The notes beneath the pieces are model-generated. The model worked only from the letters and a program-made list of their open reading frames with translations, had not been told where the DNA came from and did not search any database. The position numbers and the translations under genes were made by a program. A stretch of 63,970 nucleotides of DNA, counting the filler, from Reclinomonas americana ATCC 50394 (taxonomy: Eukaryota): assembly GCA_048213135.1 (NCBI GenBank). It is 11 parts of 6 records of this genome, joined end to end, with 100 filler letters (N's around TTAATTAATTAA, not from the genome) between each part and the next. Parts side by side here need not be neighbours in the genome. Positions count along the whole stretch, not along the records: positions 1 to 15,715 come from PS015735.1; positions 15,816 to 24,784 come from PS015736.1; positions 24,885 to 32,264 come from PS015737.1; 8 more parts are not named here. One strand, written 5' to 3'. Shown here one piece after another: positions 7,296 through 59,326 of this stretch (position 1 is its first letter; each line of letters opens with the position of its first letter).

Positions 7296-7347
<52 letters not shown>

Positions 7348-8456: not shown

Positions 8457-8523
8457 GACAGAAGGAGAGCGATGGAGACAGAGAGGGGGGACACGCACAC
8501 GTGGTGGGACATCACTTCTCGCG

Positions 8524-8582
8524 ATGTGGTGGACCGCAGCAGTGCCGCGCATTGGTGAGTGTATGCCTGTGCGCGACTCACA

Positions 8583-8614
<32 letters not shown>

Positions 8615-9093
8615 GCACAGCGCGTCGGCTGTTCTCCTCTGCACCATCGGCAACCGAACTGAAGAAGCCCAAGCTGGTTATTCTTGGTTGCGTTGTCTCT
8701 CTCCCTCTCTCGTGCGCACAACGTTCTCTGGTGACTCACACGTCGCTGTGCAGGCACGGGTTGGGGTGGCTTCCGAGTGCTCAAGGTCGGTGCTGCATGC
8801 GCGTGCTGTGCGAGGAGGCTTGCATTTTGTTCACTGCTGCATGTGTGTGACAGGGCATTGACATGGACAAGTTCCGTGTGACTGTGGTGAGTCGCGTGTG
8901 CTGCATAACGCACACGGAGAGCAGCAACTGAATGGATGACACGTAGATCTCGCCACGTAACTTTTTCCTGTTCACACCACTGCTGCCATCGACTGTGACT
9001 GGTCTGTGTGTCTGTGAATGTCTGCTGTCTGCAAGCTGCCCCCACTGATCATTGTTGTTGCATGGTGCATAGGTGTTGTCGAGTTCCGGTGCG

Positions 9094-9124
<31 letters not shown>

Positions 9125-11249
9125 TGTTATAATGTGGACAACTCGCTCATGTGTGTTTGTTTAAATGTGTGCAGATCGATCACGGAGCCCGTGCGCTCGG
9201 CGCGACGTCAGCCGTTCAACTTTATCGGTATGCCTACCTACCAGTCACACTTCGCTGTCAGTGCTGCTTCTCACGTCGCGATGCATGCATCAGAGGCATT
9301 CGCCACCGATATCGACGTGGTGAAGCAGACGGTGCGATGCCAGTTGGATCGACCGCGAGAGCCCGGCGAGCACGGCTCGCAACCGTTTGACGTGCGATAC
9401 GACCAGGTGCGATGCATGCACAGTCGTAGCTATGAGCAAGCTTCCGCTCACAGTCGGCGACGCAGCTGGTCATCTCTGTCGGTGCCAAGAACTCCACGCT
9501 CAACGTCCCCGGTGTCAAGGAGTATGCGTGTCATCTGAAGGTGCCGCTGCGCATGCCCCTCGCCCTTCTTGTGTTGTGAAAGTGCTTACCGATGTGCGCA
9601 CAGGAAGTGCACGAGGGTTCGCGTTGCGCTTCAACCTGCGGATATCCGCGACAACTCACTGTCGCGTCTGCACAGCCCGCGCACTGCGGTACAAGATTTT
9701 GGACTTGTTTGAGCACGCCGCCGATCCCAATTTGACACAGCAGCAGCGCAAGGAGTTGCGCATGCCTCTTACATTCTCCACTCCTCCTGCCATGTCTCTC
9801 ACTCTCGGTCATGCAGTCTGCTCCATTTCGTCATTGTTGGTGGTGGAGTTGCGCTCGCACTGTCTGCTGCGTAAGCTCCCTTCCTGTTCCCTCGCTCACC
9901 ATACCGTGTGTCAGCCAACGGGCGTGGAGACTGCGGCCGAGGTCGCTGACATGGTCAGCGAGGATCTTCGTCGACTGTATCCCGATATTTGGCAAGACTG
10001 TGTCATCTCGTTGTTCGAGGTGCGCCGTCTTTCCTTCTTTCGTGTGTCGTCGTTTGCCAAGGGTTCGTCGCACAGGGTCGTGCACTGCTGAGTGCATTCG
10101 ACCAAGATACGCAAAGTTCCGTGTCTCGTGCTGCTCGCTTGTGATGTGTGGCCAGTGCTGACCGGACCGTCGATTGCAGCCTATGTGGAGAGGTCGTTGA
10201 AGCGTTCCAACGTCGACGTGCGCATTGGTGTGCGTGTCAAGGAGGTACGCGAGAAGGAAGTGATTCTTGGCGACGGCACCGTGGAGAAGTGTGGCATCAT
10301 TCTGTGGTCCACCGGTGAGTGTTGATTTTGGGTGCCCGCCTGCTCGCCGTCACTCTCGACCTGACCAATCGCACAGGCATTGCACCTCGCGATTCCGTGC
10401 GCGGTACGCAATTGCGCCATTGTGCCTGTCGTTCTTTTTTGTGTGTTTATTCTCTCTGCAGGGTTCAAGAACATCCCGAAGAACGAGCGAGGCATGATTG
10501 TCACAAACGAGTTCTTGCAGGTGACAACCATGGGCTCCGAGTGATAGCGGCGCGATCTCACTGCGTGCATCGCAGGTGGTTGATGCGGACGGCACGACGG
10601 GGATCAACGCCGAGGCGCGCGAGGCGCTGAACACGCGACGCAACGTCTACGCCATCGGAGACTGCGCCACGATTGTCGGACGACCGCTGGCTGCGACTGC
10701 GCAGGTGGCACAGCAGGAGGGCAAGGTTCGCCACCATTGCTGTGCCCGTGTTCTCCCCAGCTGTGTGTCGATGACATGTGTGCTGTATGTCAACAAAAGT
10801 ACGTGGCCAAGATCTTGAACCGCGGCGACAAGCAGCCACCGTTCTCGTTTATCAATCGCGGCATGCTGGCCTATGTGGTGCGAACGCGGTTGCTTCTTTG
10901 TTGCGTATGCAAGTCTGTGACTCTTCACATGCAGGGCGGCTACCGTGCGATCGCCGACATCCCCAGTGCCTCTGTCAAGTCCAGTGGCTTCATGTCGTTC
11001 CTCTTCTGGCGCTCCGCCTACCTTACCATGCTTGTGTCGCTGCGCAACAAGGTGGGCGCCGCCACAGACACGTTGATGGGTGGATGACTCTGCACTGACT
11101 GTTTCCGCCGACAGATCCTTGTACCCATTGACTGGACCAAGACTCTGCTCTTTGGGTGCGTCAACACAAACACACTCGTGCACTGAAATCATCCGTCCGT
11201 TCCCGTCCCTCACATCTCACATGACAGACGGAATACGTCGAAATTCTGA
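8524..11249 (+). CDS. Type II (alternative) NADH:ubiquinone oxidoreductase, mitochondrial; ~21 introns
   Basis: The spliced product has KPKLVILGTGWGG, ISPRNFFLFTPLLPST, FVIVGGGPTGVETAAE, VYAIGDCA, ATAQVAQQEGKY, FLFWRSAYLT and DWTKTLLFGRNTSKF*. Confidence 0.95.
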
Positions 11250-11292
11250 CAACCGAGGAAGAGGGAGGCACCATCCACATTGACTATTAAAT

Positions 11293-14200
11293 TCATTGTT
11301 GCCAGGTGGAGCGGTGCGCAAAGAACGTGGTACCAAATTGTCTCGGGGTAGAGCTAGATTCACCCGAAGCAGCACCACCGTCGGTTTTCACCGATCCTGT
11401 TCGTGCACGTGCCGACTGCACACGACTGCCTGCATTGGAGCTCCCCCTTGGTCTCCCGGCGTTGATGGCCAGAATCTGCTCGGCAGGCGATGGTGGCGAC
11501 CGCGGAGCCTGGAATGCTATGCCGCGCGATACATCAATAGGCCCCACAGCAGCCGCTCCTCCTCCTCCTCCTCCTCCTCCACTGCCTCCACCTGCTGTTG
11601 CTTTCCCGGCGCCTTGTCTGGACGACAACTGACCCGAATAGCCACTTGCCGCAGCCGTCTGCAGATCAAAGTGGAACTGCGGTGCCGTGTCTTCCACAGC
11701 GGAGGCGGTGCTGGCCACCGAGCTGCACTCCAGACGTCAGTGTGTGATTCGTCGTCGATGCACGACACGCAATTGTTGGGACTCACCCCGTTTCGTGTCG
11801 GTCGGTCGCTGTGTCAGCTGGCGGCGGTGGTGCTTGGCCCGTCGTGTTCCAGAACGTAATCACTCGGTTCAGCTCGGCGTCAAGTTGGAGCTGCCACCGA
11901 TAACACATGTGAGCGGAAGCCGCCAAAGGAGACACCACACGGAATGCACTCAACAATTTCCTCGCGCAGCTTTTGCGCTTCACGGCTATCACTCGGCACG
12001 CGGCGCAGCTTCTCGTGGCGCTCCTCCAACTGCTCCACCAGCAGCTTCACGCCCGGATCGATGAGTACAAGACTCTTGCGGTTGATGACCCCCGACATTT
12101 TCTGGTCACTGTATCATCATTCAACGTCAGTCGCCACACAAGAAGCTGCGGGCGTCCAGTGGCATTCGCAACTAGGTGTCAGTGGCGGGCGTCAAGTCGC
12201 GGACCTGTGCCTTCAGTCGATCGACTTGCATGCGAAGCGAGTGCAGCTCGCTCTGCAAATCAAAGTACTCCTTGCTGTGCGTCACAAGAGGAGGTTGAGC
12301 AACGACAGCCAACAGGACCATCGAGAGCAAAGGCACGTACCGAGGCAGCGCCACGACCTGGGAGTCGAACTGCTCCTGCGGATTACCCTGCCCCAACGCC
12401 ACCAGTTGCGATCGCAGTGCTTCCTTCTCGGCCCACGTTCGATCGATTTCAGACTCGGCTATCACGGCGAAAGGTGAGAACCAGGCGCACGCAGGTGAGG
12501 GAGCGACGCAGATCACGCACCCTTGATCAGCAGCATTCGCAGCTGATTTTCCCTGTATGCCGCACTCCGACCAAACTGCACCCACCCCAGGCATCACGGT
12601 GAGCGCACATCGAGTAAAATACAAGACGTACACGCACGCAGTCCACCTCTTTCATGCTTGTCGCGGCGCCCTCGACAAACCTCGTAAAGCACATTCGATA
12701 TACACTGGCCACATCGTTCTGCTGCTTTGGTCCATTGGCCTGAATATCACCACACACCCGCGTGAGTACCCGTGATTCTCACCATCTCCCGTCTTGCAGT
12801 CAGACACTGACTCACCAACATGTAAGTGATGGCCGTTGTCGCAGAGCGTTTCCACAACTCGGCGACCTCGTCTGCCACGGCAACTCCGTTGGGGCCAGCA
12901 GGCATCCGTGGCGACGAACCGGAGCCGCCAGCAGACGACTGCCGTTTCTCCTTCTTGCCCCCTTGCCGCTGTCGCTGCATGCTGGCCATCACCGAGGCTG
13001 CCGCCACGGCCACTGCCGTGTCTTTGAACGCTGGCAGAGTGGCACGCAGCGCAGTAGGTGTCACCAGGCTTCCGTTACCATGTTCAGCGCCGCCGTTCTC
13101 GCCACCGTCGTCGCCCTCGTCCTCGCTGTCGGCCGCAAACCCTTGCGGAGGTGCATTGCCCGAAAATTGTCGGCATCGACGGACGCTGTCGGCCAGAGGG
13201 AACTCGAGTAGACTCGCCACACCCTGTGTCAGTGCCTCGCGTTTCTCCTTGGTCAGCTGCTGCGACGCCGAGGAAGGCCGATTATTGGCTTTGCCGGCTG
13301 CGAAGAAGTGTCGGTTACACAGGCACAAACACAGCAGAAGTCAACATGCGACTACAACACACATGGGTCGGCGCTGTACGGGCGCATGTTGGCACGAGGT
13401 GTGTCGCGCTCGGCCGCATGTCTCTCATCATGTGGCCCTCCCGGCACGCTGCATCCGTCGCCAGTGAGCACTCGCGAAAATCGAGCGACGAAGGAAGAGG
13501 ACGAAACAGGTGGACAGTGGACGATGTGAGCCGTGGGCCAGGAGAGGGTATGGTGTTGTGCGGAACCACGCCCACCGGCGCAGACGACATGGCGAAAGAC
13601 TGCAACATTGGTCGCCTGCCACCAGAAGGCGATGCCGTGAGTTGTGGCGGTGGAGCCACGCGGGAATCCATCATGCCCTCATCGTCGGAGAGTGGTGCAG
13701 GTGAGCCGTCGTCGTCAAAGAACGGCGAGCCACGCATCATGTCGAGCGATTGCATCGGCATGCCCTCAACTGCCGAATAAAAAACATAAGCAAGCGTCGC
13801 ATCTGTTGCGTGCACGACACANNNNNNNNNNNNNNNNNNNNNNNNNNNNNNNNNNNNNNNNNNNNNNNNNNNNNNNNNNNNNNNNNNNNNNNNNNNNNNN
13901 NNNNNNNNNNNNNNNNNNNNNNNNNNNNNNNNNNNNNNNNNNNNNNNNNNNNNNNNNNNNNNNNNNNNNNNNNNNNNNNNNNNNNNNNNNNNNNNNNNNN
14001 NNNNNNNNNNNNNNNNNNNNNNNNNNNNNNNNNNNNNNNNNNNNNNNNNNNNNNNNNNNNNNNNNNNNNNNNNNNNNNNNNNNNNNNNNNNNNNNNNNNN
14101 NNNNNNNNNNNNNNNNNNNNNNNNNNNNNNNNNNNNNNNNNNNCATGCATGCACACCAGCTTGCAAAATACGCTCAATATGCGTTGTCTTGCTCGGGGGT

Positions 14201-15490
14201 GGTGACGAGACGCGGAGCAGTTCGTCGTCCAACCCATCGCCACTGATAGAGTCCTGATAGCTGGAGTCACCTCCCTCCATGCCTGTTCTGCGAGCTGCGC
14301 GGATCAACTCCTCCTGCATCGACTGTGGTGAGTGATCCATCACTGCGTGGACTGGCATTGAAGACACGCACCGTATCACCGCTGTACTCGGTGCCGGTAC
14401 GTGCGCTCGGTGGCGCTGCGTCTGCCGGATGCAGTCGCCTGTACACCACTCGTCCAGGTGCCGTCGGCGCTCCNNNNNNNNNNNNNNNNNNNNGTCGGCA
14501 TCCATTTCGTCGGGTGGAACGCTGCGGGAGGTCTCCCGTCGCAACGCGTTGTCCACTCGCTCAAGAAGTCGCCGATGCGCCTCAGACCCAACACCCTTGG
14601 TGACTGACGGCGGCCGCGGCGCTGACTCTGTCAATCGCACAGGCTCCGCAGCCACAGGTGTCGGGGGCTCGGACGGCTCCGTAGGCGGTGGTGGTGACGA
14701 GGAGTCGTGTTGTTGTTGGTCGTCGTAACGGATCTGCAGACACTCGATGTGAGACGCGAAACAGAGGCAGTGGGGGTGGAATACATAATCTGATCCATAC
14801 CAATGTAAAGTTGGCGCTGGTGCCAAACGACGTCGGCAACTCCAGTGCCTGATTGAACTCGCCCAGCAAATCCAGAGTGACGGCAGAACTGCTTCCGGTC
14901 GACTGCCGCATGCGCCCACTACTGGTAGGCCGCGATCGCGGTGCTGACCGTGCACCACCCGCTGCACGGCCGCTGTCATTCTGCGGCAAGTACGCAGCGG
15001 GTGCCATGAGTCGGCTCGTGGCATCACGCCGCGGCATCGCATTGTGTGTCCGCACACTCACGCTGCGCACCATCACGGACGAATGAGAACCACATAACAC
15101 ATTGTCGTTCTCTTGCTCTCCTCCTTACCCGAGCACGGCAGAGTCGTTGCGCATGCGAGCGCTCCACGGCCGCGATTGTGGACCGGCACCGACAAAGGCC
15201 GGATCGGGAGGTGGCGCACCGGACGCGCGAGCGCTCTTCGGACGCTGCAGACCACCCTTGGGGAAGCCGGGTGGGCCAGCCATCTCCTTCTGCTCAGCAG
15301 CATTTGTCACCATCGCAGTCAGCGATCTCTCTCCCAAAACAAACGGACACTTCGAAGCTACACAACTTGCAAGTGTGCTCGAAAACTGCGTGGCGCCGAC
15401 GTCGGTGGTCGATTCTGCGACGCAGACGTCGGCGACAGTGCGAAATCATCAAGAGGCAGTGCCGGCACGTTGGCCGGGCGAGGTGGACCA
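11293..15490 (-). CDS. Large low-complexity/coiled-coil hypothetical protein, multi-exon, 5' partial and gapped
   Basis: Chain of minus-strand ORFs with GT..AG boundaries. Ser/Pro/Arg-rich (RPxSA motifs) with a C-terminal coiled coil. No domain recognised. Confidence 0.45.
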
Positions 15491-15529
15491 CCTGTGAAAC
15501 CGAGTGAGGGGAAGCGAGAGATGAGGAAA

Positions 15530-15715
15530 GAACGGAAGGAACAGGGGGGAAGGAGGAGATGGAAGGAACAGGGGGAAGGAGGAGAGGGGAAAGAACAGGG
15601 GGGAAGGAGGAGAGGGGGAAGGAACAGGTGGGAAGGAACAGGGGGGAGGAACAGGTGGGAAGGAACAGGGGGGAAGGAGGAGATGGAAGGAACAGGGGGA
15701 AGGGGGAAGGATTAG
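15530..15715 (+). repeat. Purine-rich imperfect tandem repeat (GGAAGGAACAGGGGG-like units)
   Basis: Repeated GGAAGGAACAGG(G/T)GG units directly visible, ending at a contig edge. Confidence 0.85.
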
Positions 15716-15815
15716 NNNNNNNNNNNNNNNNNNNNNNNNNNNNNNNNNNNNNNNNNNNNTTAATTAATTAANNNNNNNNNNNNNNNNNNNNNNNNNNNNN
15801 NNNNNNNNNNNNNNN
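15716..15815. other. Artificial assembly spacer N-TTAATTAATTAA-N (recurs ~24829, 32309, 37199, 39571, 41885, 44124, 46029, 51549, 56369)
   Basis: Identical 12-mer with stops in all six frames, embedded in N runs. Confidence 0.97.
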
Positions 15816-16400
15816 GGACTGACTGTGTGCGTGTGGCCGACTGGGCATCAGCCAGGAAACGAGACCTCGCTCGCGCCCATCGGTGGCCAGCAGACTCCAG
15901 TAGTACATGTACGTCTCCTGCGGCATGTACGAGCGCACAATCGCAGCGTACGACGGATCCTCGAGAATCTGTCGCATGACTCGAATGCTGCAGAGGACGA
16001 TCAGATCTCTCTCTCTCTCGAAAAGGCGAGAAAAAAGAGCATGACACACCGGCCAGTGGACGCTGCTCGTTTGAGCGTGTGCAGCAGGAACGCCACGTCG
16101 ACATAGCCATGAAAGTTGGCGTACAGACGCTGCGCCAGCATCTCGGGAGCCATGGATGACGACGCACCCTCATCTGCCGCACCATACGCCACCTTTGCCG
16201 TCTCCAGCAACTGCTCAGACGCTTGCTGCTGAGTGCGTGTCGGCTGTGTGGAGACCACCGACGGCTGCTTGCGATGTTGCGTCGTCTTCAACGAGCTTGG
16301 ATCAGCAGCTGAAGCATTGGTGGGTGGTGCGACGGGGGCCAGAGTCGGCAGTGGGCTTGCTGCTGGTGCGCTCACTGGGAACTCCAGATCGAGGCCCTGA
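15816..16400 (-). CDS. Hypothetical protein fragment, 3' truncated by gap
   Basis: Exons LAQRLYANFHGYVDVAFLLHTLK and DLIVLCSIRVMRQILEDPSYAAIVRSYMP separated by a short intron. Confidence 0.45.
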
Positions 16401-16653
16401 TGTGTGCGTTAGTGTGTGTGTGTGTGTATGTGTGTTTCTGATGATAAATCAGACGACGCAACGGGCGCTGGTCGCAGCTCTGACTGCGACGATTGCTGGT
16501 AGATGCCAGAGTTCACCACGACACGTGACTGCATCTGTGTGGCTTCGCCTCTCTTCGTGTCGCAGGAACTGTGCGCCCACGCCTCCTCTCGTTCTTTGTT
16601 ATGTTGTGTTATTGGTGCATAGGACAAACGGCCAACGTTCGATTACATACATT

Positions 16654-18333
16654 TTAGCCTTCGTCCTCTTCCTCCTCTTCCTCCTTTTTCTGTTTCCTCT
16701 TGGTCTTCTTGGCCTTCTTCTTCTGCTTCTTCTCCTTCTTCGTTGCCTCGTTGGTGGTGGTGTGCAGATCCAGAGTGCCATCCTCGTCCTCCTCCTCATC
16801 CTCATCCTCTTCATCCTCTTCGTCAGTCGACGTCGTCTTCTTCTTGCTCTTCATGGGCTCGTCAGCGGTCGCTCCATTCCGCTTGCTCTTTTCCTTCTTT
16901 TTCTTCTTCTTGCTCTCGCTCGCAGTTGCGGACGTGGTGGTGGTTGTGGTGGTGGCGGCGGCGCTCGTCGGTCTCCTATCGACAACGTCCACTTGCATGC
17001 TGCCGGCGGCGGCGGCGGCAGCGGAGCCGCGACCGACCTTCTTTGGTCTTAGTGCGTCCACCACCACCGCGCTCTCAATACCCTGCGCGGCGCCACTCGT
17101 GAGAGGATGCAATGAGAGGAACGAGAGAGGCAGGCAAACGCACCGCAAAAATGTCCATGCCCTGCTCGATGCACTCGATGAGCAGCGGGATGCGTCGCTC
17201 ACTAAAGTCGTCTGCTTGGCGGAAGGCGTCCAACTCGTCGCCAAAGCACTTGGTGAACTCGTCCAGGTACCACTCGGAGAACGACGGCAGCGCGCCAGCA
17301 TCGTCGCCAGACGAGGCTCGCGACGCATCGGCCAGCATGGCCGGCACACGACGCCCCAGCACCTGCATGTCACGATCGATGCGCTTCCACACCGCCGCAC
17401 TGGCGTAGCGCTGCAGCAGCGGCAACGTGGTGTTCAATCGCAAATCCTGTCGCGCACGAGGCCAGTCAGCAACGACAGAGAGAGAGAGAGGGAGGGAGGG
17501 AGAAGAGTGCTTGCTCTCAATGCTTCTCCTGTGACTCCTCTCTCTTCCTTGCTATGCATGATAACCTCTTCGCGTATGTCCATGCGCTCCAGATCCACCG
17601 CCAGCGCCGCAAACGAGGGCGCCTCCTTGACCGGCACGTGATTGAGATTGTGTAGGATGCAGTGTACGCGCTTCACCAGCGCCAGAATGCGCAGTGACAC
17701 GTCGGCCAGCTGGTGAACGTCACCCGCCGACGCACCTGTCGACAAAGGATCAGTGGGAGGTGAGAGAGAGAGAGGAGGGAGGGTGAAGGAGGGGTGTGAA
17801 TTCTCGCACGCACCACCCAGCGGCAGCCTGTGCATTGCCGACGCGCTGTCAGTGTCGGCGGTCCACACGCCCGGACTGACGCTGGAGGCCAGTTGCGCTG
17901 ACCACTCGACCAGTCGCTGTGCTTCACTCTGCTTGGCGTTGACTGGGTGCTCCTCTTCTTCCTCCTCTTCCTCATCGTCATCATCATCGTCATCTGCATG
18001 CATGCATTGTCAGTGACTGATCAATCACATCATCCATCGACGCACACACACACACACCGTCCATCGTCACATCGACTGGCATCGCATCGTCCTCCTCCTC
18101 CTCTTCGTCCTCCTCATCGTCATCGTCGTCGGCGTGAACGGGGCGGCTCTTCTTCACTTTCCGCTCCTGTCGTGAGCCATCTGCACATGCACATGCCCAA
18201 CACGCCCACAATGAGACAACCGGCATTTGCAGGCGACTGAACGCGCGTGCGGATGCGTACCATCGCTGCTGCTGCTACTACTACTGCTGCTGCTGCTGCT
18301 GCTGTCACTGTCGCTGCTGTCGCTGTCGCTCAT
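16654..18333 (-). CDS. Rsa3-domain (ribosome assembly) acidic/Lys-rich nucleolar-type protein
   Basis: FSEWYLDEFTKCFGDELDAFRQADDFSERRIPLLIECIEQGMDIF resembles the Rsa3 domain. SD-rich N-terminus and poly-E/poly-K tail. Confidence 0.65.
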
Positions 18334-19260
18334 GGTGGTGCTTGTGGACAAATGAATAACGCGCGAGTTTCCGGTTTTCGAAACGTGAAGCAGTCCACGA
18401 GACTGCCGATGACCGTCGTCATACACAGCTGCAGTGAGGACGCACGCGGCTTTGCTGCAAATCTGCTTGGTTGCAATCGATCGCAGCGCGCGATATTCGA
18501 ATTATCGCAGACTCGTACCACAAGCCCGTGAACGCTGCGCCCTTCGACGCCGACAGCGCACACTGCCTCGCTTCACACACACACACACACATCACGTCCT
18601 CCGCCGGCACACCGGCACAGGACGGCGTATGTGGCGGCCAAAAACTCCCATCGAATATTCTCGTTGCCTTTTTTGAGTTCACGCCGAGCGAAGAAGAATG
18701 AACGAGCCGACACACAACCCCGCCGCCACCACGCTGATGATGATGATGATGTCATCCTCGACAACCACAACCGCACGGACATGCGACATGCCGCCACCCG
18801 CGTCTTCGACGCGACTGAGACAGGTGAGTGTGCTTTTTGGTCGCAAAAAACATTCGCGAAATTTCTGCCTGTTTTTTGTCTGTCTTCTTGTGCGGCGCGT
18901 CTGTCGCTCGCTCGCCCTCTCTTTGTAGGTGCGTGTGCGTTTGTTCCAGTGTAGCCGTGCACACAGTTGGAGAGGGGAGAGAGAGGCTCTGAGAAAGTGA
19001 GTGCGCGAATCATTCCGTCGTGCGCACTGTTACAGCGCCAGGTGATGCATCACGCACACACACTGATTCACTTTTCACACTCAGCCGCGCTGACATAGAT
19101 ACACACACATTCGCATTGAGCAGTAGATCCATTCATCACTCTGCGCGCGCGTGTGCGTGCGTGTGTGCGTGTCAGAGCGACACTTTCGTCCACTTCTCAC
19201 ACGCTCTCTTACCACGCACAGTCGCCAGCCTCGCGCGCCACCCCATCAGCAGCCGTCAAC

Positions 19261-21719
19261 ATGCCGATGGAAGGAACCACCTTTGCCGAGTACGAGGCAC
19301 TCGTGCGAATACTCACCTCACAAGCAGCAGCGGCCAGCAGCAGTGGTGCAGCAGCCGCAGCCGCAGCCGCAGCAGCGGCCGCCACCTCCGCATCACCAGC
19401 AGGCTCCAGTTGTTCAGCGTCGCCTCTCATGCACCGACCACCCACCACACATCACGCCATGTCGTCTCCATCATCATCGTCATCGTCGTCGTCTTCCTCG
19501 TCGTCGTCTTCAGCTGCGGCCGCGTTGGCAGCCGCGGCAGCAGCAGTGGGCACGTCAGCGCCTCCGTCGCCTGCCTCCTCCGTCGTCTCTGACATTGACG
19601 ACGAGACTCGCCTGCAGAGGGTACGTCTTGTGTGTGTGCGGTGGTGGCATCATCGGTCATTCGGCGAAAAGCATAAGTGTCCTGATTTGACAACTGATGC
19701 ACAGGTTATCGGGTGGTGCGCATGCGCTTGATTGTTCTTCATATTTTCTGGTGCGAGGCGTTGCTCATGTGTGTGTGCGTTGGTGTGGTGACAGGGCTCC
19801 CAAGTTCATTCTGAAGGAGGTTCGATTGCATGACGGAACACCGATTGTGACGCCGGTTCGGATTGTGGACGGAAGATTTCTCGTGCCGCCGCTGCCGCCA
19901 GTTGCGTCTCGTGCGACTGCTTCCGACTGCTGCGTCTGCTGCTACTGCTGCTGCTGACCTATGTGCATGGCGNNNNNNNNNNNNNNNNNNNNCGATCAGG
20001 GCCCGCTTGATCCAGGATCGCTGACGGTCCGTGCGGTGATGGCGGCGCATGTGGCGTTGTCGCACTGCGGTGCGGACGAGACGCACGCGGAGCTGTCGGT
20101 GCACTGCGTCAACAATGTGCCGTTGGTGGATGTGGCGCACATCCTCCGCTCATGTTGTGCTCAATGTCATCCGCCACCGCTCGGCAGCGAGTCGGCGGCA
20201 CCGTCGCGCGGCACACCGCACGCCCACATGAGCGGCGTGCCGCCGTTTGTGCGCCTGCGTCGCTCGTGGCCGCGGCGATTGGCACTCTGCCATCGTGGCA
20301 CCGAGGAGAGGCAAGTGTCGGTCGATGTGTTGATGCCCGTCGCAGGGTGTGATGGGGGCGCGGCGGACGACAGCACGTGCGGCGACAGTGCTACTGGCAA
20401 CGAGAGCTCCATGCAGTGCGATGCACAGTCGGTGGCCTCGGCCTCGTCGTGCTCCTTCGATCCGCTGCAACACTCACGGCGGCANNNNNNNNNNNNNNNN
20501 NNNNGTTCTCCTCTTCGGCATCTCGCGCCGTGCAGTTGGCCTCGCTGGCCTTCAAGTGCGACGACGAAACCGGCGCCATTCTCACCGGCAACAAGGTGCG
20601 CAAGCTCGAGTACCTGCTTGCCGACGCCACGGATATGCACTGTCAAGTGATTATGACGTGTGGCGGAGTGGTGCGTCATGCTTTCGCCTGTTTTTTGCTC
20701 GCTCCCCCTCGGTGTTCTGATTCACTTGTTTGCGGTGTGACAGCAATCGAATCACTGCCGAGCCACGGCCGCCGCTTGTGCTCGTCTCGGTCTCCAGTGC
20801 CACGTATTCCTGCGTGGTCGCCCTCCTCGTGCGTCTCTTCGCCAGTGGTGCCATGTACTCTTTTGCTGTCTCGCATACTGACAGGAGCGTGTGGCAGACG
20901 ATGGTCTGTTGACCGGCAACCTTTTGCTAATGTCTATTTCCGGCGCCACCATCCACTACCTGGCGGAGGAGGACTATTATCACGGTGGCGTCGGTGATCG
21001 GATGCAGCAGATGGCTTCAGAGCTGGCCGCACATCAGGGCCTCATGAGCTACATTATCCCGTCGGGTGGCTCCAACGCTCTCGGCTGCTTCGGCTACGTC
21101 GACATGGTGGTGAGTCAAAAAATACGCGTGCACATTGTGTGGCACCACGAACTGCGTCGCTGACAACGTGTGACCCACCTGGCAGACGGAGGTGGTGGAG
21201 AGATGTTCGTCTGGCGGCGAACTTGCTGCCATTCACGGATTTCCGTACACGCACATTGCGGTGGCTGTCGGTTCGGGCGGCACGGTAGCCGGTGCGTCGC
21301 ATCGGAGGGGTGGGGAAACACAACTCTTCCGTTTGGTCGTGCAGCTGACCCGCTTTTTTCGTTGCCAGGCATTATTCTGGGTCTCGCGCTGCACGGCTTG
21401 TTGCCTCAAGTGCATGTAATCGGCTTCTCGGTGTGCGACAGCCGCGAGTACTTTGAGGAACACGTGTCGACCATTATTGACGATTTCCGACGGCGGTCGG
21501 GCGTGGAGGATTTGCAAGTGCCCCGTGAATCGTGGTCCATTATCGATGGTGCGCTGCCGTAGAGTATTCATGTGATCGTCGTGTGGGAAGCGCTGACGCT
21601 GGGTGGGTCGCGTAGTTGCTGGCGACGGGTATGGCATCGAGCTGCCGGGGGAAGCGGAGGCACTCAAGTCACTGGCACGACGCACTGGCGTCTTCCTCGA
21701 TCCGGTGTACGGCGGCAAG
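19261..21719 (+). CDS. PLP-dependent D-cysteine desulfhydrase / ACC deaminase family enzyme with N-terminal extension; 3' end lost in repeat/gap
   Basis: KCDD..GNKVRKLEYLLADA, TCGGVQSNHCRATA, GNLLL, IPSGGSNALG.FGYV, AVGSGGT.AG and LDPVY.GK. Confidence 0.9.
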
Positions 21720-21734
21720 GTGTGTACATGTCTG

Positions 21735-21736
<2 letters not shown>

Positions 21737-21816
<80 letters not shown>

Positions 21817-21905
21817 GTACGTACGTACCGTACCTACCTCCGTCCGTCCGTCCGTACGACGACGACGTCGTGTTGGTGGTCGTCGTACGACGTACGTACG
21901 TACGT
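21737..21905. repeat. (TG)n microsatellite followed by (TACG)n/(CCGT)n simple repeats, intronic
   Basis: Direct inspection. Confidence 0.95.
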
Positions 21906-22189
21906 NNNNNNNNNNNNNNNNNNNNNNNNNNNNNNNNNNNNNNNNNNNNNNNNNNNNNNNNNNNNNNNNNNNNNNNNNNNNNNNNNNNNNNNNNNNNNNN
22001 NNNNNNNNNNNNNNNNNNNNNNNNNNNNNNNNNNNNNNNNNNNNNNNNNNNNNNNNNNNNNNNNNNNNNNNNCCCGACCATGTTTTCTTGGTGGAGAGCG
22101 GCTTTAGTAAAATTAGACGGTGGCTGTCGTCTATTGCCGTTCTTTCGTCTATGTGGTTTCGTTCCCCTTCCTATCCCCTCCTCCCCACA

Positions 22190-22220
<31 letters not shown>

Positions 22221-22481
22221 TCATGGTACGTACCCCATTCCTGTGCCCTTGTGGTTGGCAATTTCGTTCCTTCTCTCTCTCTCTCTCTCTCTCCTCTCAT
22301 GTTTGTGCGTAGTATGTGTGTTTGTTTCTCGGTCAATGTGATGTGCCCGTGTACGATGTGTGTGTTGTGTGTGTGTGTGTCGAGCGTCCAATGAACTGCA
22401 GCCGACACGAATCAAGCCGCCAAACTCCATTCTTCATTTTGGCAGTGAGCACGCACACAAAAAGTGGAAACAATCAATCGA

Positions 22482-24085
22482 TTACTGCGGGTCACCGGCG
22501 GCGGCCGCCACCGCCACACTGTCTGATGCGACGACGTCGGCCGACACATTGGCGACCTCGGCTGGCGGCAATTGCGAGCACAGCGAGCATTCGGGGTTGG
22601 CTTCCATCTTCCACCGCTCAATCTGCGCGTGACACAACAGAAGTCAGGAACAAGTACGCACACAAACACGAGCGCGCGCGCGCGCATCTACATACCTGCC
22701 AGCTCATCATGTAGACGATCACGCGGTTCGGCTGGTCCATCTCCATGCGCGCTGGGTAGTCCAGCAAATGCTGCACGGCCAGGCCCACCATGGTGTGGCA
22801 CTGTCGAACACGAGAGAGCGTAAGTATTCTTGACCTCTTCCTTTTCTCGTCAGAAGCAACAGACCCCAACAGAGCACGAATAAATGGTGCTTCCGCCGCC
22901 CTGGTACAGATTGTCTGTGTGTGCGCGTGCGTGGTACGGTGAGAGATTGGAGGTACACACGACGAGCACTCTCGACAGACGGCAGACCTCGCGGAATAAA
23001 GTCGATTGTCTCCAGCTTGTCAATCACATCCAGTGACAGTCGCGCCTTGACCTCCTCGTTGGTCAAGTCAATCATGCACGCCCAGCAGGGGCGGCCAGTG
23101 GCGGTGGCGACTGACCGGTGGCACTCGAGTGAGGCGAACAGATTGAATGCATGAAAGAAACACGGAACGCAACAGTCAACAGTGAGCGTGTGACCGTAGA
23201 CGGGATCGGTGCCGCCGACCACGAGCGGAATGCGCAGCTTCAGTGCGAGCGACGCCACCGCATAGTCAAAGTAGTCACCTGTGGCGGGCGCACCCACATG
23301 AACACAGACAGGGACGTCGGTCAAATCGTGGAGATCAACATGGACCGCGGTGCACTCGACGACGAACCAACGTCGATGCCGTTGAAGAGAATGGTGCACT
23401 CGCGTGCGGCCTGCACCACGAGGTACCAGTTGATGACGGCTGCCGGTTTCAGCACACAGTGAGCAGGAGTGGAGGAGAGGAGGGCACAAGAAAGAAGAGA
23501 GTTAAAAAAAAGGCACCATCAGTGTGAATCGGAACAATTTCTGTGCCCAGATTGTGGCGCTCCAGCGAGTCCTTCGCGGCATCCACCTTGCGCCGACCCA
23601 CGTCGGCCTTGGAGTACAACATCTGACGATTGAGGTTGTGATAGTCGACCACATCTCGATCCTGTGACAATGGTTTCCCTCGGTGAGCATAGAGAGAAAG
23701 AAAGACGTGAACATGTGCTGTGCGTGTGTGACTCATGCACACCAAGATGAAGATCTTCTTGAAGCCGAGTCGCACACAGTCCATGGCACACGTGCAGCCC
23801 ACACCGCCTATGATGCGCATTTCAGGCTTTCTTGATTTGTCTCACAACTCCACCGTGTTACACGCACCCACACCCAGAATGAAGGCCACTTGCTCACGCA
23901 CAATCTCCTGGTCCCATCCGCGGCATCGGCGTTGACTGTGCACACACAGAGAGAGAGAGTGAGAAAGAGAGGTTGACTAACTGGATGCGCTCTTTTTCTC
24001 ACACACATTACACACACCGCTCAAAGTAGTCAACAGCGGGGTGCTCCGCTGCTGCAGCTGCGTGTGCGTGCTCCTCCCCGCTCAT
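22482..24085 (-). CDS. ThiF/MoeB/E1-like adenylyltransferase family protein, multi-exon
   Basis: DYFERQ, ILGVGGVGC, DRDVVDYHNLNRQMLYSKADVGRRKVDAA, GRPCWAC and C-terminal NPECSLC. Confidence 0.88.
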
Positions 24086-24361
24086 TTGCAAACCCACGGC
24101 GAAACTCCACGGTCCACCTCAATCGATTGGGGCGAGAAGATGACCGTTGCATCCTTTTTCAAGTTTTCGGTGAGCAAAAGCCACTTGTACTTCCCTCCCT
24201 CTCCCACTGCGGCACGCTCTCCATCTATACACGCGCTCTCCTCCTCCTCCTTCTCCTCACTTGCTCACTCACGCACTGCTGACAAAAGTTTGTTGTGTGC
24301 CACATACAGACTGCGCGCGCTCGTCTCCCTCAAGAAAACCCTCAACAAGACCAACTCAGAA

Positions 24362-24784
24362 ATGCGCGCTGCTGCACTGTGGATTGCGGTGGCGGTGATG
24401 CTCGTGGCGGTGGCCGCGGCACAGGAAAACCCGGGTTTCCGCAGAGAACGGTGCCCGACGCTCACTGATCGTCAGACACGCGCGGCAATGCAGTTTGACA
24501 TCTCCAAGTTCACTGGCCAGTGGTTCCAGGTGCTCGACTACGACCTGTCGCAGTCAGCCTTCAAGTGCCAGGTGAGCAACAGAGAGAGAGAGACACACAC
24601 ACAAGTGGCACTCGTTGTCGCACAAAATAATCCCCAACGGCTCATCATTTTTTGTTGTCATTCTCTCATTGTGCAGAGCGTGAACAACCAGCTGACGTTC
24701 GCCGACGACGGCTCCACCATCCCGCAGTCTGTGACGCAGACGCTGACCTACAAGGACACGTCGGATGGCAACTCGGTGCAGTCG
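24362..24784 (+). CDS. Secreted lipocalin-like protein, 3' partial
   Basis: Signal peptide, CPT, and the lipocalin SCR1-like motif FDISKFTGQWFQV followed by C. Confidence 0.6.
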
Positions 24785-24884
24785 NNNNNNNNNNNNNNNN
24801 NNNNNNNNNNNNNNNNNNNNNNNNNNNNTTAATTAATTAANNNNNNNNNNNNNNNNNNNNNNNNNNNNNNNNNNNNNNNNNNNN

Positions 24885-27800
24885 CTTGAAGGAGGGCTCG
24901 CAGGCAAGGTCTGTGACACAGTGACGACAGGCTAAGCAGTAGACATCTACAAGGGCCTCACTGTGCACCCCGGCAGAACGGTGGCGGCCACCAACATGAA
25001 TGCCACGTCGAGTCGCGCGCACACTATTTTCACGATGACATTCAGTCAGTCAGTTGTTGCGTGCAAGACGCGGTCGCAGTCTCGCCCACTTCTTCTTCAT
25101 CATCAGCACCGTCCTAAACCCCTCCATTTTCCGGCATGCAGTGGGACCCCGTGGTTCAGCGTTCGACCTCCAAGGCTTCCAAGATCCACCTTGTCGACTT
25201 GGCCGGCTCGGAGCGCGCGCGTTCGGCACAGAGTGTCGGCGATCGTCTGAAGGAGGGTTGCTCCATCAACCGATCCTTGTCGTGTCTCGGCAAGTGCATT
25301 CATGCTCTTGCCGACGCCTCGGAGAGCGGCGGAAGTGGAGCAGCTGCAGCAACGGGCAAGGCCGCGAAACCGTTTGTGCCGTACCGCGAGTCGGCTCTCA
25401 CGTGGTGCGTGCCGTGTGTGTACAGTACACTCTTCGTGGGGCGCCTGCCAGCATCTGACCCTTCACCCATGCAGGTTGTTGAAAGAGTCGCTCGGCGGCA
25501 ACTCGAAGACCGTCATGATTGCCACCATCTCGCCCGCCGACGTGCACTACGAGGAGACTCTGTCGACCCTCAAGTACGCCGACCGCGCCAAGCAGATTCG
25601 CACCAAGGCCGTGGTCAACGAGGATCCCAACGCCAAGCTCGTGCGCGAGCTGCGCATGGAGATTGAGAAGTTGCGGTCGCAGCTGACCGACACGCCCAAC
25701 AACCCACAAGACGAGGTTGCCTCGCTGCGCGAACAGTTGCAGCAGAGTGAGAAACTCATTGCGGAGCTGCGCATGACGGCCAAGGAGCGCAAGGCCGTGA
25801 CAGAGGCCATTAACAGAGAGCGTGCCGAGATTCTCAAGGTGTAGTGCGCTCACCGCTGCCTCCTTGTTGTATTTTCCGCCGCTTCTCTGACACTGCAGAG
25901 GTGTAGGGCGCGGGTTTGATGCTCTCGGAACTCGGTTTCGACCAGCGATCGACTCCACACTTTGTCAATCTCAACGAGGACCCGCTGATGTCCGAGTGTC
26001 TCGTGTACTTTATCAAGGAGGGCATCACGCACATTGGGCGCACCAACGTCAAGAACCCTCCAGACATTGAGCTCAGCGGCTCGTCGGTGGCCAAGGACCA
26101 CTGTGTGGTGGAACGCCAAGGCAACGATGTGTATCTGCGGCAAACATGCCAGGATCCGCGGTACCGTACTTTTGTGAATGGACAACTGGTGCAGGATGTG
26201 GTGCAGCTGCGGCAGGGCTTCCGAGTCATCATTGGTGGCAATCACATTTTCCGATTCAATCACCCGGCAGAGGTGGCCGCCATGTCTGGTCGACGCAAGC
26301 GCCGAGCCTCCTCTGCCGCCTCTGCCGCCTCACACATGAGTGAGGAGGGTGCGCCGGTGGACTCGGACGAGATTATCGACTGGGAGTTTGCGCAAAAGGC
26401 GAGCACAAGCACAACACTTCCGAAATCCTTGAGTTGTCGCTAATTGTGCTTTTGTCGACATTAGGAATGGATGCGTGCACAGGGCTTCATTCAATCCGAC
26501 GAGCTCGTACGGCAGATTGAGGAGGAGCGGCAAAAGGCACGGGAGGCGCTGGAGGAAGAGCATCGGCAACGTGAGCGTGAACTGCAACAGATGATGAAGA
26601 AGCAGGAGGAGCTGCTGCGTCTGAAGGAGGAAGAGGTGTGTGGCAGTCGCTTCTGTACGCTGCCCTGCGCAGTTGTTGTTCTCACTCTTCATTCTGTTTC
26701 TATCTTGCAGTTTGAGAAGCGACTGCAGTCGCTGCATCAGCGCGGAGCGGTGGCCGAGGAAGAAGAAGTCCGGAAAGAGAGGGTACGCATACATGGTGCC
26801 AGTGTGACACTCTGCCACGTGCTGACGGACTGTGCGTTACAGGCACGGGTGCACGAGCGCTTTCACAGCGAACGCACGGCACTCGAGCAGAAAAAGGATC
26901 GCCTGGCCGAGGAGAACGAGTGGCATCGACGCATGGAGGAGTATTCGGCGGCCGAAAGCAAGGCCAAGGTGGTCATCGAGGAGGCGCTGATGAAGGTGCG
27001 CCCGGGTGCTGTTGTTGCTGCTCTCCTCTTCCAGTCCCCCGCTCACTCGCACCACTACAGCTCATGCCGTTGATCACGCAAGCCAACTCGTGGGCCGAGG
27101 CGCTGCAGCGCCCGATGCGCTTCGAAGCCAAGATCGTCACGGCGTACGCCGAGATGAAGAGCATCATCAACCGTGATGCCTCCTCGACCGTCTCGCGCAA
27201 CTCCAAGCCAGACATTTCGTTCTTCAAGAACTTGGCCAACGTTGTCGTCCGGGTCAACAATTTGTGGAACGACACGAGCTGCATGTGGGAGGAGGGCAAG
27301 TTTGTCAATCGCTACTACATTATGCAAGAGGTGTACGAGCGGGCGCTGGACGCTGTCGACTGTCGCGAGCCGTACGTCCTCAGTCTGGAGGCCGACCCTT
27401 TTTACGATCCACCCGAGACGCAGATTATTGGCGTCGCCCTGCTGTACCTGCAGCCACTCGCCTACCGGCTCGACTCGATGTGCTCGACCCCGATTTTGGA
27501 CTACAAGGGCGCCGAGAAGGGCTACATCAACGCAGAGATGTTGCGTGCTCACGTGGAACACGTAGGGTGTGCAGATGATCGTTTGGTCTTACTCACTTTT
27601 GCGTCGCAGCATTCCGGTGACGGCCGACGGCGAGGAGGATGTGGATCCGGTGGCGTCGCCCAACGAATTGATCGGTCAGCGTCTCGACTTTGAACTGCGT
27701 GTGCACGAGCTGGAGGGTCTGGAGGACAGCATGGCCAACGACGTGTACGTGCACTACAAGCTGCTGGAGCAGTCGCTGGCGTCGGACTCGCATCTCGGCC

Positions 27801-29027
27801 ACGCCACCACTTTCACGCTGGGCTTCAACAAGCACTTCACCTTTAATCCAGTGACGAAGCAGCTACTTACCTTCCTCCAGCGCGAGGCGGTGGCGCTGGA
27901 GGTGTACGGACACGCCGACGAGACCAACAAGCCTCACGCACTGGCGCTGAATCAGCATCGGCGTAACGGGGGTGGTGCTGGCTACCGCCACGCGCATCTA
28001 GGATTGGACGAGAAGCGCGCAGCGGTGGCCGCCGAGGAGGCCGAGTTGAGCCGCAAGATTCAACAGTACGAGAGGAATTTGCACCAGCGCGGCGAGTCGA
28101 GTGTGGCCGCCGACGACGACGACGAAGAAGGTGGGGAGGACGACGAGGGCTACGGCACCGGCTACGGTCAATGGGGCTACGGTCTCGGTGGTGACGACGA
28201 AGAGGACGAGGAAGGTGTGGGTGCAGAGTACGACGACGACGACGACGAAGGGGACGCCGCATATGGTGAAGACGACATTATCGCTGGTGAGGTTTACGAG
28301 GGCGAAGGCGACGGTGAGTTTGACCGTGTCGGTGGCGACGAGGACGACGATGACGACGGCGGGGAGGAGACAGGCGGGCGGAGAAGGCATCGACGCCGCT
28401 CACGGTCGCCCGAGGTGCTGGAGCGTGAGCGTGAGCTGCGCGAGTTGCGCGAGAAGAACAATGTGATTGAGCGAGAGCGTGCACGGTACGAGTCGGAGCA
28501 CGAGCGACTCGAAAGGGAGCGCAAGGCCGCTGAAGACGAGAGGCAACGCCTGTTGGCTGAGCAGCAGCACTTGGAGCAAGTTAGGGAGCGTCGGCGGCAG
28601 CTGGAGGAGGAGGAGCTGCGACGTGTGGCGGAGATGGAGGCGAGGTTGCGAGTGGCGGAGCAAGCACTCTCCAAGTTGGGTGTGGTCATTCCGCCGTCGT
28701 CGCCACCGCCGCCACAGGCGGCCGATGGCAAGCACACGCCGGGCGTCAGTGGCGTCACAACGGACACACCAGCTGAGGCAGGCACGCCGTCGGCCAAGTC
28801 GCCGGCCGCTCTGGAGACGGAGAAGGCGCTGGAGGCGGAGCGGTTGCGCAACCAGCAACTGATGGAGGAAATGGAGCGCATGAAGCGCAGCCTGGAGGAG
28901 CGTCAGGTGAGCATCCCCTCTTTGAATGAGAGAGTGAGGGAGAGACAGGTCGCTGACTGGTGATTGGTGAATGCAGACGGCGGGCGCCAGCGGGAGCGGC
29001 AACTCGAAATCCTGTGTAGTCTTGTAG
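24885..29027 (+). CDS. Kinesin-3 (KIF1/KIF28/KLP-6-like) motor with FHA domain and C-terminal CAAX; 5' partial
   Basis: [68 protein letters not shown] (FHA), [29 protein letters not shown]; ends SKSCVVL*. Confidence 0.95.
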
Positions 29028-29202
29028 AATCGCTTCCACGCCAACACACAATTCCTGTTAGAAGCCTGTTGTAATGTACCACTGTTGCTGTTTGTTTGCT
29101 TGGTACTGTAGCTTAAAAGAGGCACGTCTGCAGCTATACACTGTTGTTTTTCACGGTCTCTTCCCTACTACTTCTGCCGACTGACGACGACTACGACTCT
29201 AC

Positions 29203-30476
29203 CTACATTATGGAGCAGTTCCGCTGCGCATCGCCCTCGGCAGCAGCAGAGCCACCGGTGCCACCGCCCTGGCCAGCATTCGCAAACGCCGCCAGCAATT
29301 CCGGTGGAAGCGCCTCGTCGCCACTGCCACTGAGACCACTGCAAGAGCGTGAGTCAACGAAAGAAAACGAGGATGCTCGTTGCACGCACCCAGTGACAGA
29401 CTCCATCAGCTCCTCTGGCGGTTGCCCGCACGCCTGCAACTCCTGCACCAGCTGCAGCAGCGTCTCCTGATCGTCGGGCGTGACCTCAAACGTGTGCACG
29501 ATTCTTCTCAACAGATGCAACTGCTTCTCGTACATGGCCGTCTGCTCCGCCGGCAGCGTCGCTCGATTCCGAGCGATATACTCGGGCAGCTGCTCCGAGA
29601 GCGCCTTGAACGGCGGATACAGCACATCCTTGGACAGCAGATGCTTCACGAGATTATCCATCACACCGCGCAACGACGGATCGGCGTCCATGCGCTCCAT
29701 TTGCTCCATGACACGCGCAAACAGCTCCTCCTCCGACGCATCCGCCGGCATGCCCTGCTGCACACCCTGCTCACCACCACGCCACCGGTCAGCCATCGAT
29801 CCACGCACCAACATATTACACAAATGGGAAGAACCTCAAACTGCTTGGCTGTCTCGGCAAGCATGCTCATGGTGCGCGTCAGAGTCTCCTGCAGCTTCTT
29901 GTCGGCATCGGGATCGCCTGTGCGCATCGTGTGAGCACTCTTGTTGAACTCGGCGCTCACACACACACACACATACTGACCAGAGCCATCGGGTGTAAAC
30001 GACTCGGCCAGCAGCTTCTCCAGCTCTGCGGCCAACTCGGGCGACAGACCGTCCGGAGCAGCGCCCTATGACACAATCATCATCATCATCATCTCGTCAT
30101 CCAATGACACACACATGGACACACACGCGCACACACGCACTGTTGCACTGATGCGCGGAGGAGGCGAGGACGAGGAGCCACTCGGAGCTGCTGCTCTTGC
30201 AGAGGCCGCAGGACGAGGCGGAGGTGACGACTGTGTCGCCCCTCCTGCTGCTGCTGCTGATGCTGATGCTGTGTGTGGATCGTATGGATCCGACTCTTCA
30301 AACTCATCCAGAGCGCCTGTGGTGTGCATGTGAGAGAGAGTGTGTGTGTGAGAGAAGAGAGACGCATGGCCGGACATCGACACACGTGGAAAGGAGCGTG
30401 TGTATGCGAGTGTGTGCGTATGGAGTGAGTAGACGTAACTCTCCAGCAGCGCGTCGAGGTCCTTTTGACTGCTCAT
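29203..30476 (-). CDS. PEX19: Peroxisomal membrane protein import receptor PEX19
   Basis: N-terminal DLDALLESALDEF, LLSKDVLYPPFK, ELQACGQPPEEL and C-terminal CAAX CSIM*. Confidence 0.93.
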
Positions 30477-30811
30477 CGTCGGCTGTCTGTGTGTGTGTGT
30501 TATGTTGTGACAAGTTTGTGTCCTGCGCTGACGATTTTGTTTGCACTCCGACGACGACGACAAGGTGAGTTGCACTCTCTCTGTTTGTTTGTCTCTCTCC
30601 CTCCTGTGGCCCTCTCTCTCTCTCTCTCTCTCCTCGCGCACTCCGACTTTGGGGGACAACTCCATGTGCGGTTTGAGAGTTGTCGTCAGTTGGTGTTGGC
30701 CATCGCCTCGTGCTCTCACTCTCACTCCTCTGTCTGCTCACGACTTGCTGCTGAAACGCTGTGTGTGTGTGTGTGTGTGTGTGTGGAGCAGTGTCATCAT
30801 CGCAGTGAGTC

Positions 30812-32264: not shown

Positions 32265-32521
32265 NNNNNNNNNNNNNNNNNNNNNNNNNNNNNNNNNNNN
32301 NNNNNNNNTTAATTAATTAANNNNNNNNNNNNNNNNNNNNNNNNNNNNNNNNNNNNNNNNNNNNGCGTGTCTACAGAGGCGTCTTGTGTTGTTTTGTTTT
32401 GTGTGTGTGTGTGTGTGTGTGTGTTGTTTTTCCGCTGTCTGTCTGCCACTCTTCCTCTTATCGTCCACGCACTCCCAACTCCCCTTCTTACACATCGTCG
32501 TGTTCATTTTTTCCCGCGCAG

Positions 32522-59276: not shown

Positions 59277-59326
59277 TGCGCGCGTGAGAAGAGGATGACA
59301 CAAATTTTCAAGTCACTCTCTTCGCA

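Follow-up and report, generated by a model that had tools for sequence, protein, structure and literature searches.

In a window of 63,970 bases from Reclinomonas americana ATCC 50394 (the whole joined stretch analysed here), about one quarter of the introns seem, judged from sequence, to open with GTT, the familiar donor signal coming after it with an offset of one base. We defined a 5′ splice site (donor) as shifted if it begins with GTT and has G at intron position +6 and no G at +5, and as ordinary if it has G at +5. Among 36 homology-supported introns in genes for an NDH2-type NADH dehydrogenase, an EFHC/Rib72 protein, a kinesin-3, PEX19 and a Ras GTPase, nine donors are shifted (8687, 9755, 9848, 10116, 25056, 30439, 32870, 38507 and 38788), 23 are ordinary and four are neither; the ordinary set consists of 20 plain G+5 donors and 3 with T at +3 (9617, 10726 and 39119). 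Both classes stand side by side within single genes (EFHC, NDH2 and Ras). By sequence these appear to be spliceosomal GT-AG introns, with GT...AG ends and a branch-like motif, and their removal restores the frame and leaves a protein contiguous with its homologues.

Junctions were placed with a protein-to-genome spliced aligner that requires introns to be GT...AG and takes no other account of splice-site sequence. The guides were all 12 NDH2 homologues, 21 of 25 EFHC homologues, all 14 PEX19 homologues and, for kinesin-3, the first 1100 residues of 12 long proteins chosen from 150 listed. Four shifted introns lie in NDH2, on the plus strand: 8687..8753 (GTTGCGT), which rebuilds KPKLVILG|TGWGG with 10 of 12 guides, the other two falling short of the site; 9755..9816 (GTTGCGC; 12/12 guides); 9848..9914 (GTTGCGC), which rebuilds FVIVGGG|PTGVE with all 12; and 10116..10179 (GTTCCGT), placed by 11 of 12. 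The EFHC introns at 38507..38575 (+, GTTGCGT) and 38788..38856 (+, GTTTCGT, read as GT+T+TCGT) are each supported by 21/21 guides, and the spliced products align without gaps to 12 of 12 homologues. In the kinesin-3 motor domain, all 12 guides place intron 25056..25141 (+, GTTGCGT). The same aligner found two ordinary NDH2 donors with U at +3 and G at both −1 and +5, at 9617..9675 (+, GTTCGCG; 11/12 guides) and 10726..10799 (+, GTTCGCC; 12/12); an in-frame GTTGCGC 6 nucleotides (nt) downstream of the former, at 9623, was chosen by no guide.

The Ras junction was placed from the Pfam profile coordinates of exact exons, 102 of the 146 predicted exons having been scanned. Removal of intron 32870..32940 (+, GTTGCGT) rebuilds a conserved Ras motif: the upstream exon matches profile positions 41–65 over residues 1–25 of its 26, and the downstream exon matches 68–132 from its residue 1. 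Since these segments abut once the split codon is counted, the exons are contiguous across the GTTGCGT intron. The first intron of PEX19 (30317..30439, −, 123 nt, phase 1) has the donor GTTACGT after CTG CTG GAG A, hence A at −1. The corresponding motif, [LI]L[DN][SGN]AL[DES][DE]F, is contiguous in 12 of 14 PEX19 homologues, and the GTTACGT donor alone rebuilds it, as LLES|ALDEF, in agreement with the original prediction, which had placed this junction in a conserved motif. Spliced alignment selected 30439..30317 with 9 of 14 guides, and the runner-up donor at 30434 had 2. An in-frame GTGTGT at 30385 is a formal alternative, chosen by the first gene model with a canonical donor score; first-pass models of this kind mis-called both the PEX19 and the Ras introns. 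A search of the PDB with the PEX19 N-terminal read-through gave no matches.

As a control for the method, we applied the aligner with 3 guides to 20 of 80 kinesin-3 loci of other eukaryotes and kept introns on which at least two of three guides agreed. The 254 introns obtained had T at +3 in 18 cases and G at +5 in 206, and none was shifted, as compared with 9 of 36 here (p=2.7e-9).

The frequency of the class was examined with a dynamic-programming gene finder that combines codon usage, trained on Pfam-matched stretches (third-position G+C 0.78), with a heuristic branch/acceptor score and intron length. In a donor-agnostic (flat) run, every GT was scored alike. Across the 145 introns of genes scoring at least 30, the top donor hexamer was GTTGCG (15), followed by GTGCGT (7), GTGAGT (6) and GTGTGT (6). 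The heptamer GTTGCGT is present in 33 copies on both strands of the window, 12 of them used as donors. It corresponds to the commonest ordinary donor, GTGCGT, with a T inserted, and is the dominant member of the class, one that the original prediction had left out of its list. That prediction had shifted donors mirror each canonical donor type. An extra-T class is indeed present, but the mirroring is unequal: GTTGTGT was used in 0 of 11 copies, GTTACGT in 1 of 3, and GTTGAGT in 1 of 8, at an unvalidated site (11954), the validated set having none. GTAAGT, the classic eukaryotic donor core, has 7 copies on both strands and none is used; GTGTGT has 318 copies in the window, chiefly in GT/CA microsatellites within introns.

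Tolerance of an additional base after GT is confined to T. Motifs of the form GTT[AG][ACT]GT were used at 14 of 59 copies in the flat run, as against 0/15 for the equivalents starting GTA, 1/82 for GTC and 1/79 for GTG (2/176 for A, C or G together). Ordinary GT[AG][ACT]GT was used at 22 of 572 copies, many of which lie within GT repeats. When every in-frame, stop-free donor up to 48 nt away from a flat-run intron was listed, a strict candidate of one kind alone was available for 32 introns in the case of ordinary donors, 18 for the GTT type, 2 for GTC and none for GTA or GTG. A 'GTC + core' class that emerged from self-training of the gene finder was rejected on the low use of GTC and on Pfam spacing, which at 60973 favours an ordinary donor at 60955.

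The register was assessed with a matrix for +4 to +7 built from the 80 flat-run donors with a purine at +3. On this scale, the 40 GTT donors of the run averaged −0.81 bits unshifted and +0.33 when shifted by one (Wilcoxon p=0.03), whereas ordinary donors scored +0.49 unshifted and −0.96 shifted. G+6/T+7 occurs in 17 of 40 GTT donors versus 85 of 1321 other GTT sites (p=4e-10), and G+5/T+6 is not enriched (5/40 versus 101/1321, p=0.23). An alignment offset by 1 nt, as the original prediction had proposed, is therefore the better fit. Three components make up the GTT donors: many shifted sites, a few ordinary ones with U+3 (GTTCGY, GTTTGC) and some gene-finder noise. All 9 validated shifted donors have C at the place that corresponds to +4, as compared with 12 of 23 ordinary ones (p=0.013).

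Over both the flat run and a self-trained run there are 35 candidate shifted donors among 158–172 predicted introns, about 1 in 5, which matches the 9/36 of the homology-supported set. Shifted and ordinary introns are otherwise alike in median length (67–70 nt, p=0.4–0.6), in branch-like motif and its distance (CT[GC]AC about 16–20 nt from the acceptor), in acceptor and in C at acceptor −3. All-versus-all blastn of 158 predicted introns, with the low-complexity filter on, gave no match between any two of 29 GTT[AG][ACT]G introns; the strong intron–intron matches are all explained by a single inverted gene duplication or by CA/GT repeats, and similarity among GTTGCGT introns stops at +7. Taken with the motif use and the control, these results bear out the earlier proposal of a general class with one extra T after GT, independent of the remaining intron sequence and distinct from any one mobile family.

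The two classes differ at the exon end. In the homology-supported set, G occupies −1 in 21 of 23 ordinary donors and in 2 of 9 shifted donors (p=3.3e-4), the shifted donors having A in 5 cases, T in 2 and G in 2. The same difference is found in the donor-agnostic run (18/22 versus 2/14, p=1e-4) and in the self-trained run (27/35 versus 1/18, p=7e-7). From these alignments, ordinary donors can be written as G|GU-N-N-G-U and shifted donors as |GUU-N-C-G-U with an exon end that is usually A or U. A seven-base word, G-(G/U)-U-N-N-G-U, is common to both classes, and the cut falls before its first GU.

Four sites had been singled out originally, and each motif is in place: GTTGAGT at 11954 (−), GTTACGT at 30439 (−), GTTGCA at 41703 (+) and GTTTGCG at 39119 (+). 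Apart from the PEX19 donor described above, they differ in what they represent. Intron 39119..39186 (+, 68 nt) of the EFHC/Rib72 gene is well supported by homology: its junction, PPKKDVK|RMMANEK, is gapless in all 12 aligned EFHC homologues (of 25 found), and 20 of 21 guides select it, 18 of them with the acceptor given here and 2 with a different one. This agreement rules out the other in-frame donors, one 6 nt upstream and one 9 nt downstream. Its GTTTGCG had been read as carrying two inserted T, which is not borne out; G at −1 and +5 places it in the ordinary register, with U at +3. Intron 41703..41765 (+, 63 nt), in the TPR part of a kinase-TPR gene, has GTTGCA with A at −1 and A, not G, at +6, and is probably a related case, of weak shifted type, as had been suggested. 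A TPR_16 match in the read-through open reading frame (ORF) ends at residue 67, corresponding to base 41702, the flanking exons match TPR models, and the spliced product has, by manual count, the exact 34-residue TPR spacing with the usual A20, A27 and P32 positions. Intron 11891..11954 (−, 64 nt) belongs to a small gene with no family by Pfam and no usable homologue in a protein atlas. Its GTTGAGT, with T at −1, follows GAG GAA ATT (EEI), and TGGCAG|CTC CAA CTT GAC (LQLD) lies 64 nt downstream. The donor-agnostic run chose this donor, CTCAC lies 18 nt before the CAG, and there is no strict canonical alternative, which makes it plausible as a shifted donor.

We consider it probable, though well short of settled, that the window has two donor registers and that the shifted class corresponds to the U1 'shifted register', in which G+1 takes the place of −1G. 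The U1 small nuclear ribonucleoprotein (snRNP) would bind the seven-base word alike in both classes. In the shifted class, intron G+1 would replace the exonic −1G in this pairing, at the cost of one mismatch at U+2. The subsequent U6, U5 and Prp8 steps would then cut before the sole GU available, one base upstream relative to U1. If U6 pairs with G+6/U+7, the hand-over to U6 would still call for a bulge or other adjustment. The loss of −1G is what favours a shifted register over a simply bulged U at the U1 step. The original prediction, a general rule allowing an extra U after GU, stands as a rule, with a shifted register the better fit than a U that is merely looped out (−1G in 2/9 versus 21/23).

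Several points weigh against this reading. All the data come from one 64-kb window, and every junction in it was placed by homology, reading frame and the GT-AG rule. Homology is blind to a one-base slide of both boundaries (TT...N) and cannot separate donors 1–2 residues apart in variable regions, such as 9617 and 9623. The self-trained run is circular for donor motifs and was used for secondary counts only; at least two of its donors are doubtful, since homology points to 9617 in place of 9623 and Pfam spacing to 60955 in place of 60973. Two of the nine validated shifted donors do carry −1G, and four of the 36 introns fit neither register: 9541 (+, GTGCCGC), 10521 (+, GTGACAA), 25839 (+, GTGTAGT) and 29834 (−, GTTCTTC). 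In the gene at 11954, the coding log-odds of exon 2 is −1.8, near zero, versus +15.4 for exon 1; the EEI|LQLDAEL junction is in frame, as originally described, and as a spliced junction is plausible rather than validated. An Rfam scan of the window had no matches, so no U1 or U6 was seen there. Finally, a human-type U1 5′ end would pair with the shifted consensus at −1.4 kcal/mol in any register; the corresponding values are −7.8 for the ordinary consensus of this genome and −14.0 for that of humans. With pairing this weak, the U1 step needs a different U1 5′ end or help from protein. Weak pairing and the near-invariant C (9/9) together suggest that U1 in this organism may have an altered 5′ end, perhaps with G facing that C. 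We also observed that all four donors that fit neither register are preceded by an exonic G, and that 25839, which has G+6/T+7 after GTG, might be a shifted donor with G for U at +3.

A simple bulge, with canonical pairing of U1 and U6 to GU and to the downstream block, a looped-out U at +2/+3 and an exon end in its usual role, is in our judgement an unlikely account of the class, though the most credible of its competitors. The string GUU+RNGU is that of the human 'bulge 1 (+2/+3)' register of Tan et al. 2016 (PMC4856993), and a bulge would be needed at the U6 step anyway if U6 pairs with G+6/U+7. The restriction of the extra base to U fits bulge and shift equally. What separates them is the exon end: a bulge keeps the −1G:C9 pair and predicts that −1G is favoured, as in 21 of 23 ordinary donors, whereas shifted donors have it in 2 of 9 validated cases and in 1/18 to 2/14 predicted ones. 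We give still less credence to two U1 species, that is, a second U1 small nuclear RNA (snRNA), or a U1 5′ end with one more A, that pairs perfectly with GUUGCGU. The poor pairing of a human-type U1 5′ end with the shifted consensus speaks for it, as does the strong preference for one core, with C in 9/9 at the +4-equivalent position as if facing a fixed partner, and variant U1 genes reportedly exist in humans. However, both classes occur within single genes (EFHC, NDH2, Ras), and such a variant would account for the missing −1G only if it had lost C9 as well.

It is very improbable that the class is an artefact, arising from wrong gene models with ordinary donors nearby or from T-to-TT assembly errors at GTGCGT donors. 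The assembly is a gapped draft with 31 N runs, two of the originally reported introns are in frame and stop-free, and alternative in-frame donors such as GTGTGT at 30385 do exist. Yet an aligner blind to donor sequence picks the GTT sites with 9–21 guides each and found none among 254 introns of other eukaryotes, 18 flat-run introns have a strict GTT-type candidate with no strict ordinary one in reach, and sequencing errors would keep −1G at its ordinary frequency, contrary to what is observed, and strike all GT sites, not donors alone. Almost no weight can be given to a mobile family of introner-like introns that bring GTTGCGT as their own terminus; GTTGCGT is frequent, with its 33 copies on both strands, but the filtered comparison of 29 GTT[AG][ACT]G introns gave no match and similarity ends after +7.

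Additional members of the shifted class are predicted elsewhere in the window. Intron 31678..31750 (+, GTTGCGT) of an ARIH1-like RBR ligase is of predicted shifted type; its removal rebuilds a conserved motif, and the downstream exon matches the IBR profile from position 15, starting at the exon's first residue. A further ~20 predicted shifted donors, spanning 5163..62449, are gene-finder calls, some of them from the circular self-trained run alone. They include 6088, 6309, 6504, 6801, 7130, 16462, 23173, 36307, 48266, 50085, 56692, 57232, 57446 and 62449 on the minus strand and 27540, 39872, 44632 and 44832 on the plus strand. At 44827–44838 (+), GTTGAGT and GTTGCGT overlap (GTTGAGTTGCGT), and the gene finder takes the second, with its donor at 44832.

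The window is a eukaryotic nuclear region of ~57% G+C in which genes are densely packed and introns short. When every one of the 447 stop-to-stop ORFs at least 80 residues long was scanned with Pfam, the genes identified were a TPR protein, a Tlde1-domain ORF, the NDH2-type NADH dehydrogenase, Rsa3, a ThiF-family enzyme, the kinesin-3 with an FHA domain, PEX19, the ARIH1-like RBR ligase, the Ras GTPase, UVSSA, the EFHC/Rib72 protein with DM10 domains, the kinase-TPR protein, KxDL, a choline-transporter-like protein, a Macro-domain protein and a CCT subunit. Best protein matches are 33–58% identical. A search of metagenomes with the kinesin exon returned 80 loci, none a close relative (best full-length identity 55%), and identities of 72–77% were confined to the first 68–78 residues. 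A search of the window for transfer RNAs found none. The NDH2 gene (8524–11290, +) has ~21 exons, many of just 5–40 codons, and ~20 introns of 56–103 nt; the gene finder split it in two and skipped the exon ISPRNFFLFTPLLPSTVTG at ~8947–9001. Stop-free introns with a length that is a multiple of three (30317–30439, −, 123 nt; 41703–41765, +, 63 nt; 10878–10934, +, 57 nt) are read through by stop-to-stop ORFs and by tblastn. An intronless ORF at 2499–3215 (−) matches Tlde1 (E 1.9e-11), a domain of bacterial type, and, weakly, YkuD/L,D-transpeptidase; the ORF may be a transferred gene or contaminating sequence. Inverted copies of one multi-intron gene, at 51626–53199 (−) and 53702–55427 (+), face each other across a gap, and their introns are 90–100% identical (52576, −, versus 54331, +, 90% over 382 nt; 51796, −, versus 55115, +, 100% over 58 nt). 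Many of the N runs are paired 44-N blocks flanking the six-frame stop linker TTAATTAATTAA, for example at 41841–41940, as in a stitched draft. Gaps cut several genes, and the start of the kinesin-3 motor is missing upstream of 24785–24884.

How the exact 5′ cut site is fixed after the departure of U1 is only partly understood, and to our knowledge work on shifted and bulged registers has been limited to minigenes of a handful of human sites. In open-access full text we found no paper that joins GTTGCGT with intron, or GTTGCG with donor, introns and genome; the matches listed for GUUGCGU concern unrelated RNAs, and among the matches listed none describes a genome-scale shifted-register donor class. 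A cross-kingdom survey of 5′ splice sites (PMC10599564) leaves registers and bulges unmentioned. On our analysis, the family of mechanisms would be one already known at rare human sites, and what appears new is a major, tightly defined donor class for which we found no description. We would go further only tentatively, giving not quite even weight to a lineage-wide dual-register donor code in which 1 in 4–5 introns is cut one base upstream of the junction implied by U1 binding and the U1 5′ end has co-evolved. If the dual register is real, U1 binding register and cut-site choice would be naturally uncoupled on thousands of introns, and the organism would offer a ready-made system for how U6, U5 and Prp8 set the cut site. 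A quarter of the donors in ordinary housekeeping genes would give natural statistics on what the later steps need, would allow a test of U1 or U6 co-evolution, and would show how introns could slide by one base. Donor models with a single matrix misplace shifted donors, so standard gene finders would misplace a large share of donors in this lineage, whose annotation needs a two-register donor model.

The class can be set against several known systems. Introner elements are mobile introns of some algae and fungi; like them, the introns here are many and short with a recurring terminal motif, but their bodies are dissimilar and the motif has just 7 bases, inside the donor. U12-type introns have the consensus donor [AG]TATCCTT and branch TCCTTAAC, and none of the donors listed, predicted or homology-supported, starts with GTATCC. 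Ordinary donors of the Entamoeba type have U at +3, with a GUUUGU consensus, and the GTTCGC (9617, 10726) and GTTTGCG (39119) donors are similar, keeping G+5 and −1G. The shifted class differs in having C at +5 and G at +6, so a tolerance of U at +3 does not explain it. Shifted-register human 5′ splice sites were reportedly described by Roca and Krainer in 2009 in Nat Struct Mol Biol, and the bulge register is said to have been described by Roca et al. in 2012.

Both the shifted and the bulge (+2/+3) registers are established for human U1 (Tan et al. 2016, PMC4856993), and a non-canonical U6 register is reported for a human STAT3 tandem donor (PMC11162779). As summarised by Tan et al., bulge 1 (+2/+3) comprises 68 predicted sites, 54 after curation, and keeps the −1G pair. 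The class described here resembles it in the string GUU followed by an ordinary +3 to +6 block and departs from it in lacking −1G. In the human shifted register, as cited there, every U1:5′ splice site pair is moved by one position. Here, likewise, the cut lies at GU with G,U at +6/+7 (9/36) and the preference for G at the exon end is lost; G+1 would stand in for −1G, with the conserved block one base deeper and the cut still at GU. The example oligonucleotide printed by Tan et al., ACA/GUCAAGUAUA, also has a non-G exon end. It carries GUC, whereas U+3 in the present class would restore the A7 pair, if U1 pairs as proposed. In humans the shifted register is an exception at individual atypical sites; here it would account for ~25% of donors (9/36), with the tight consensus GUU-N-C-G-U.

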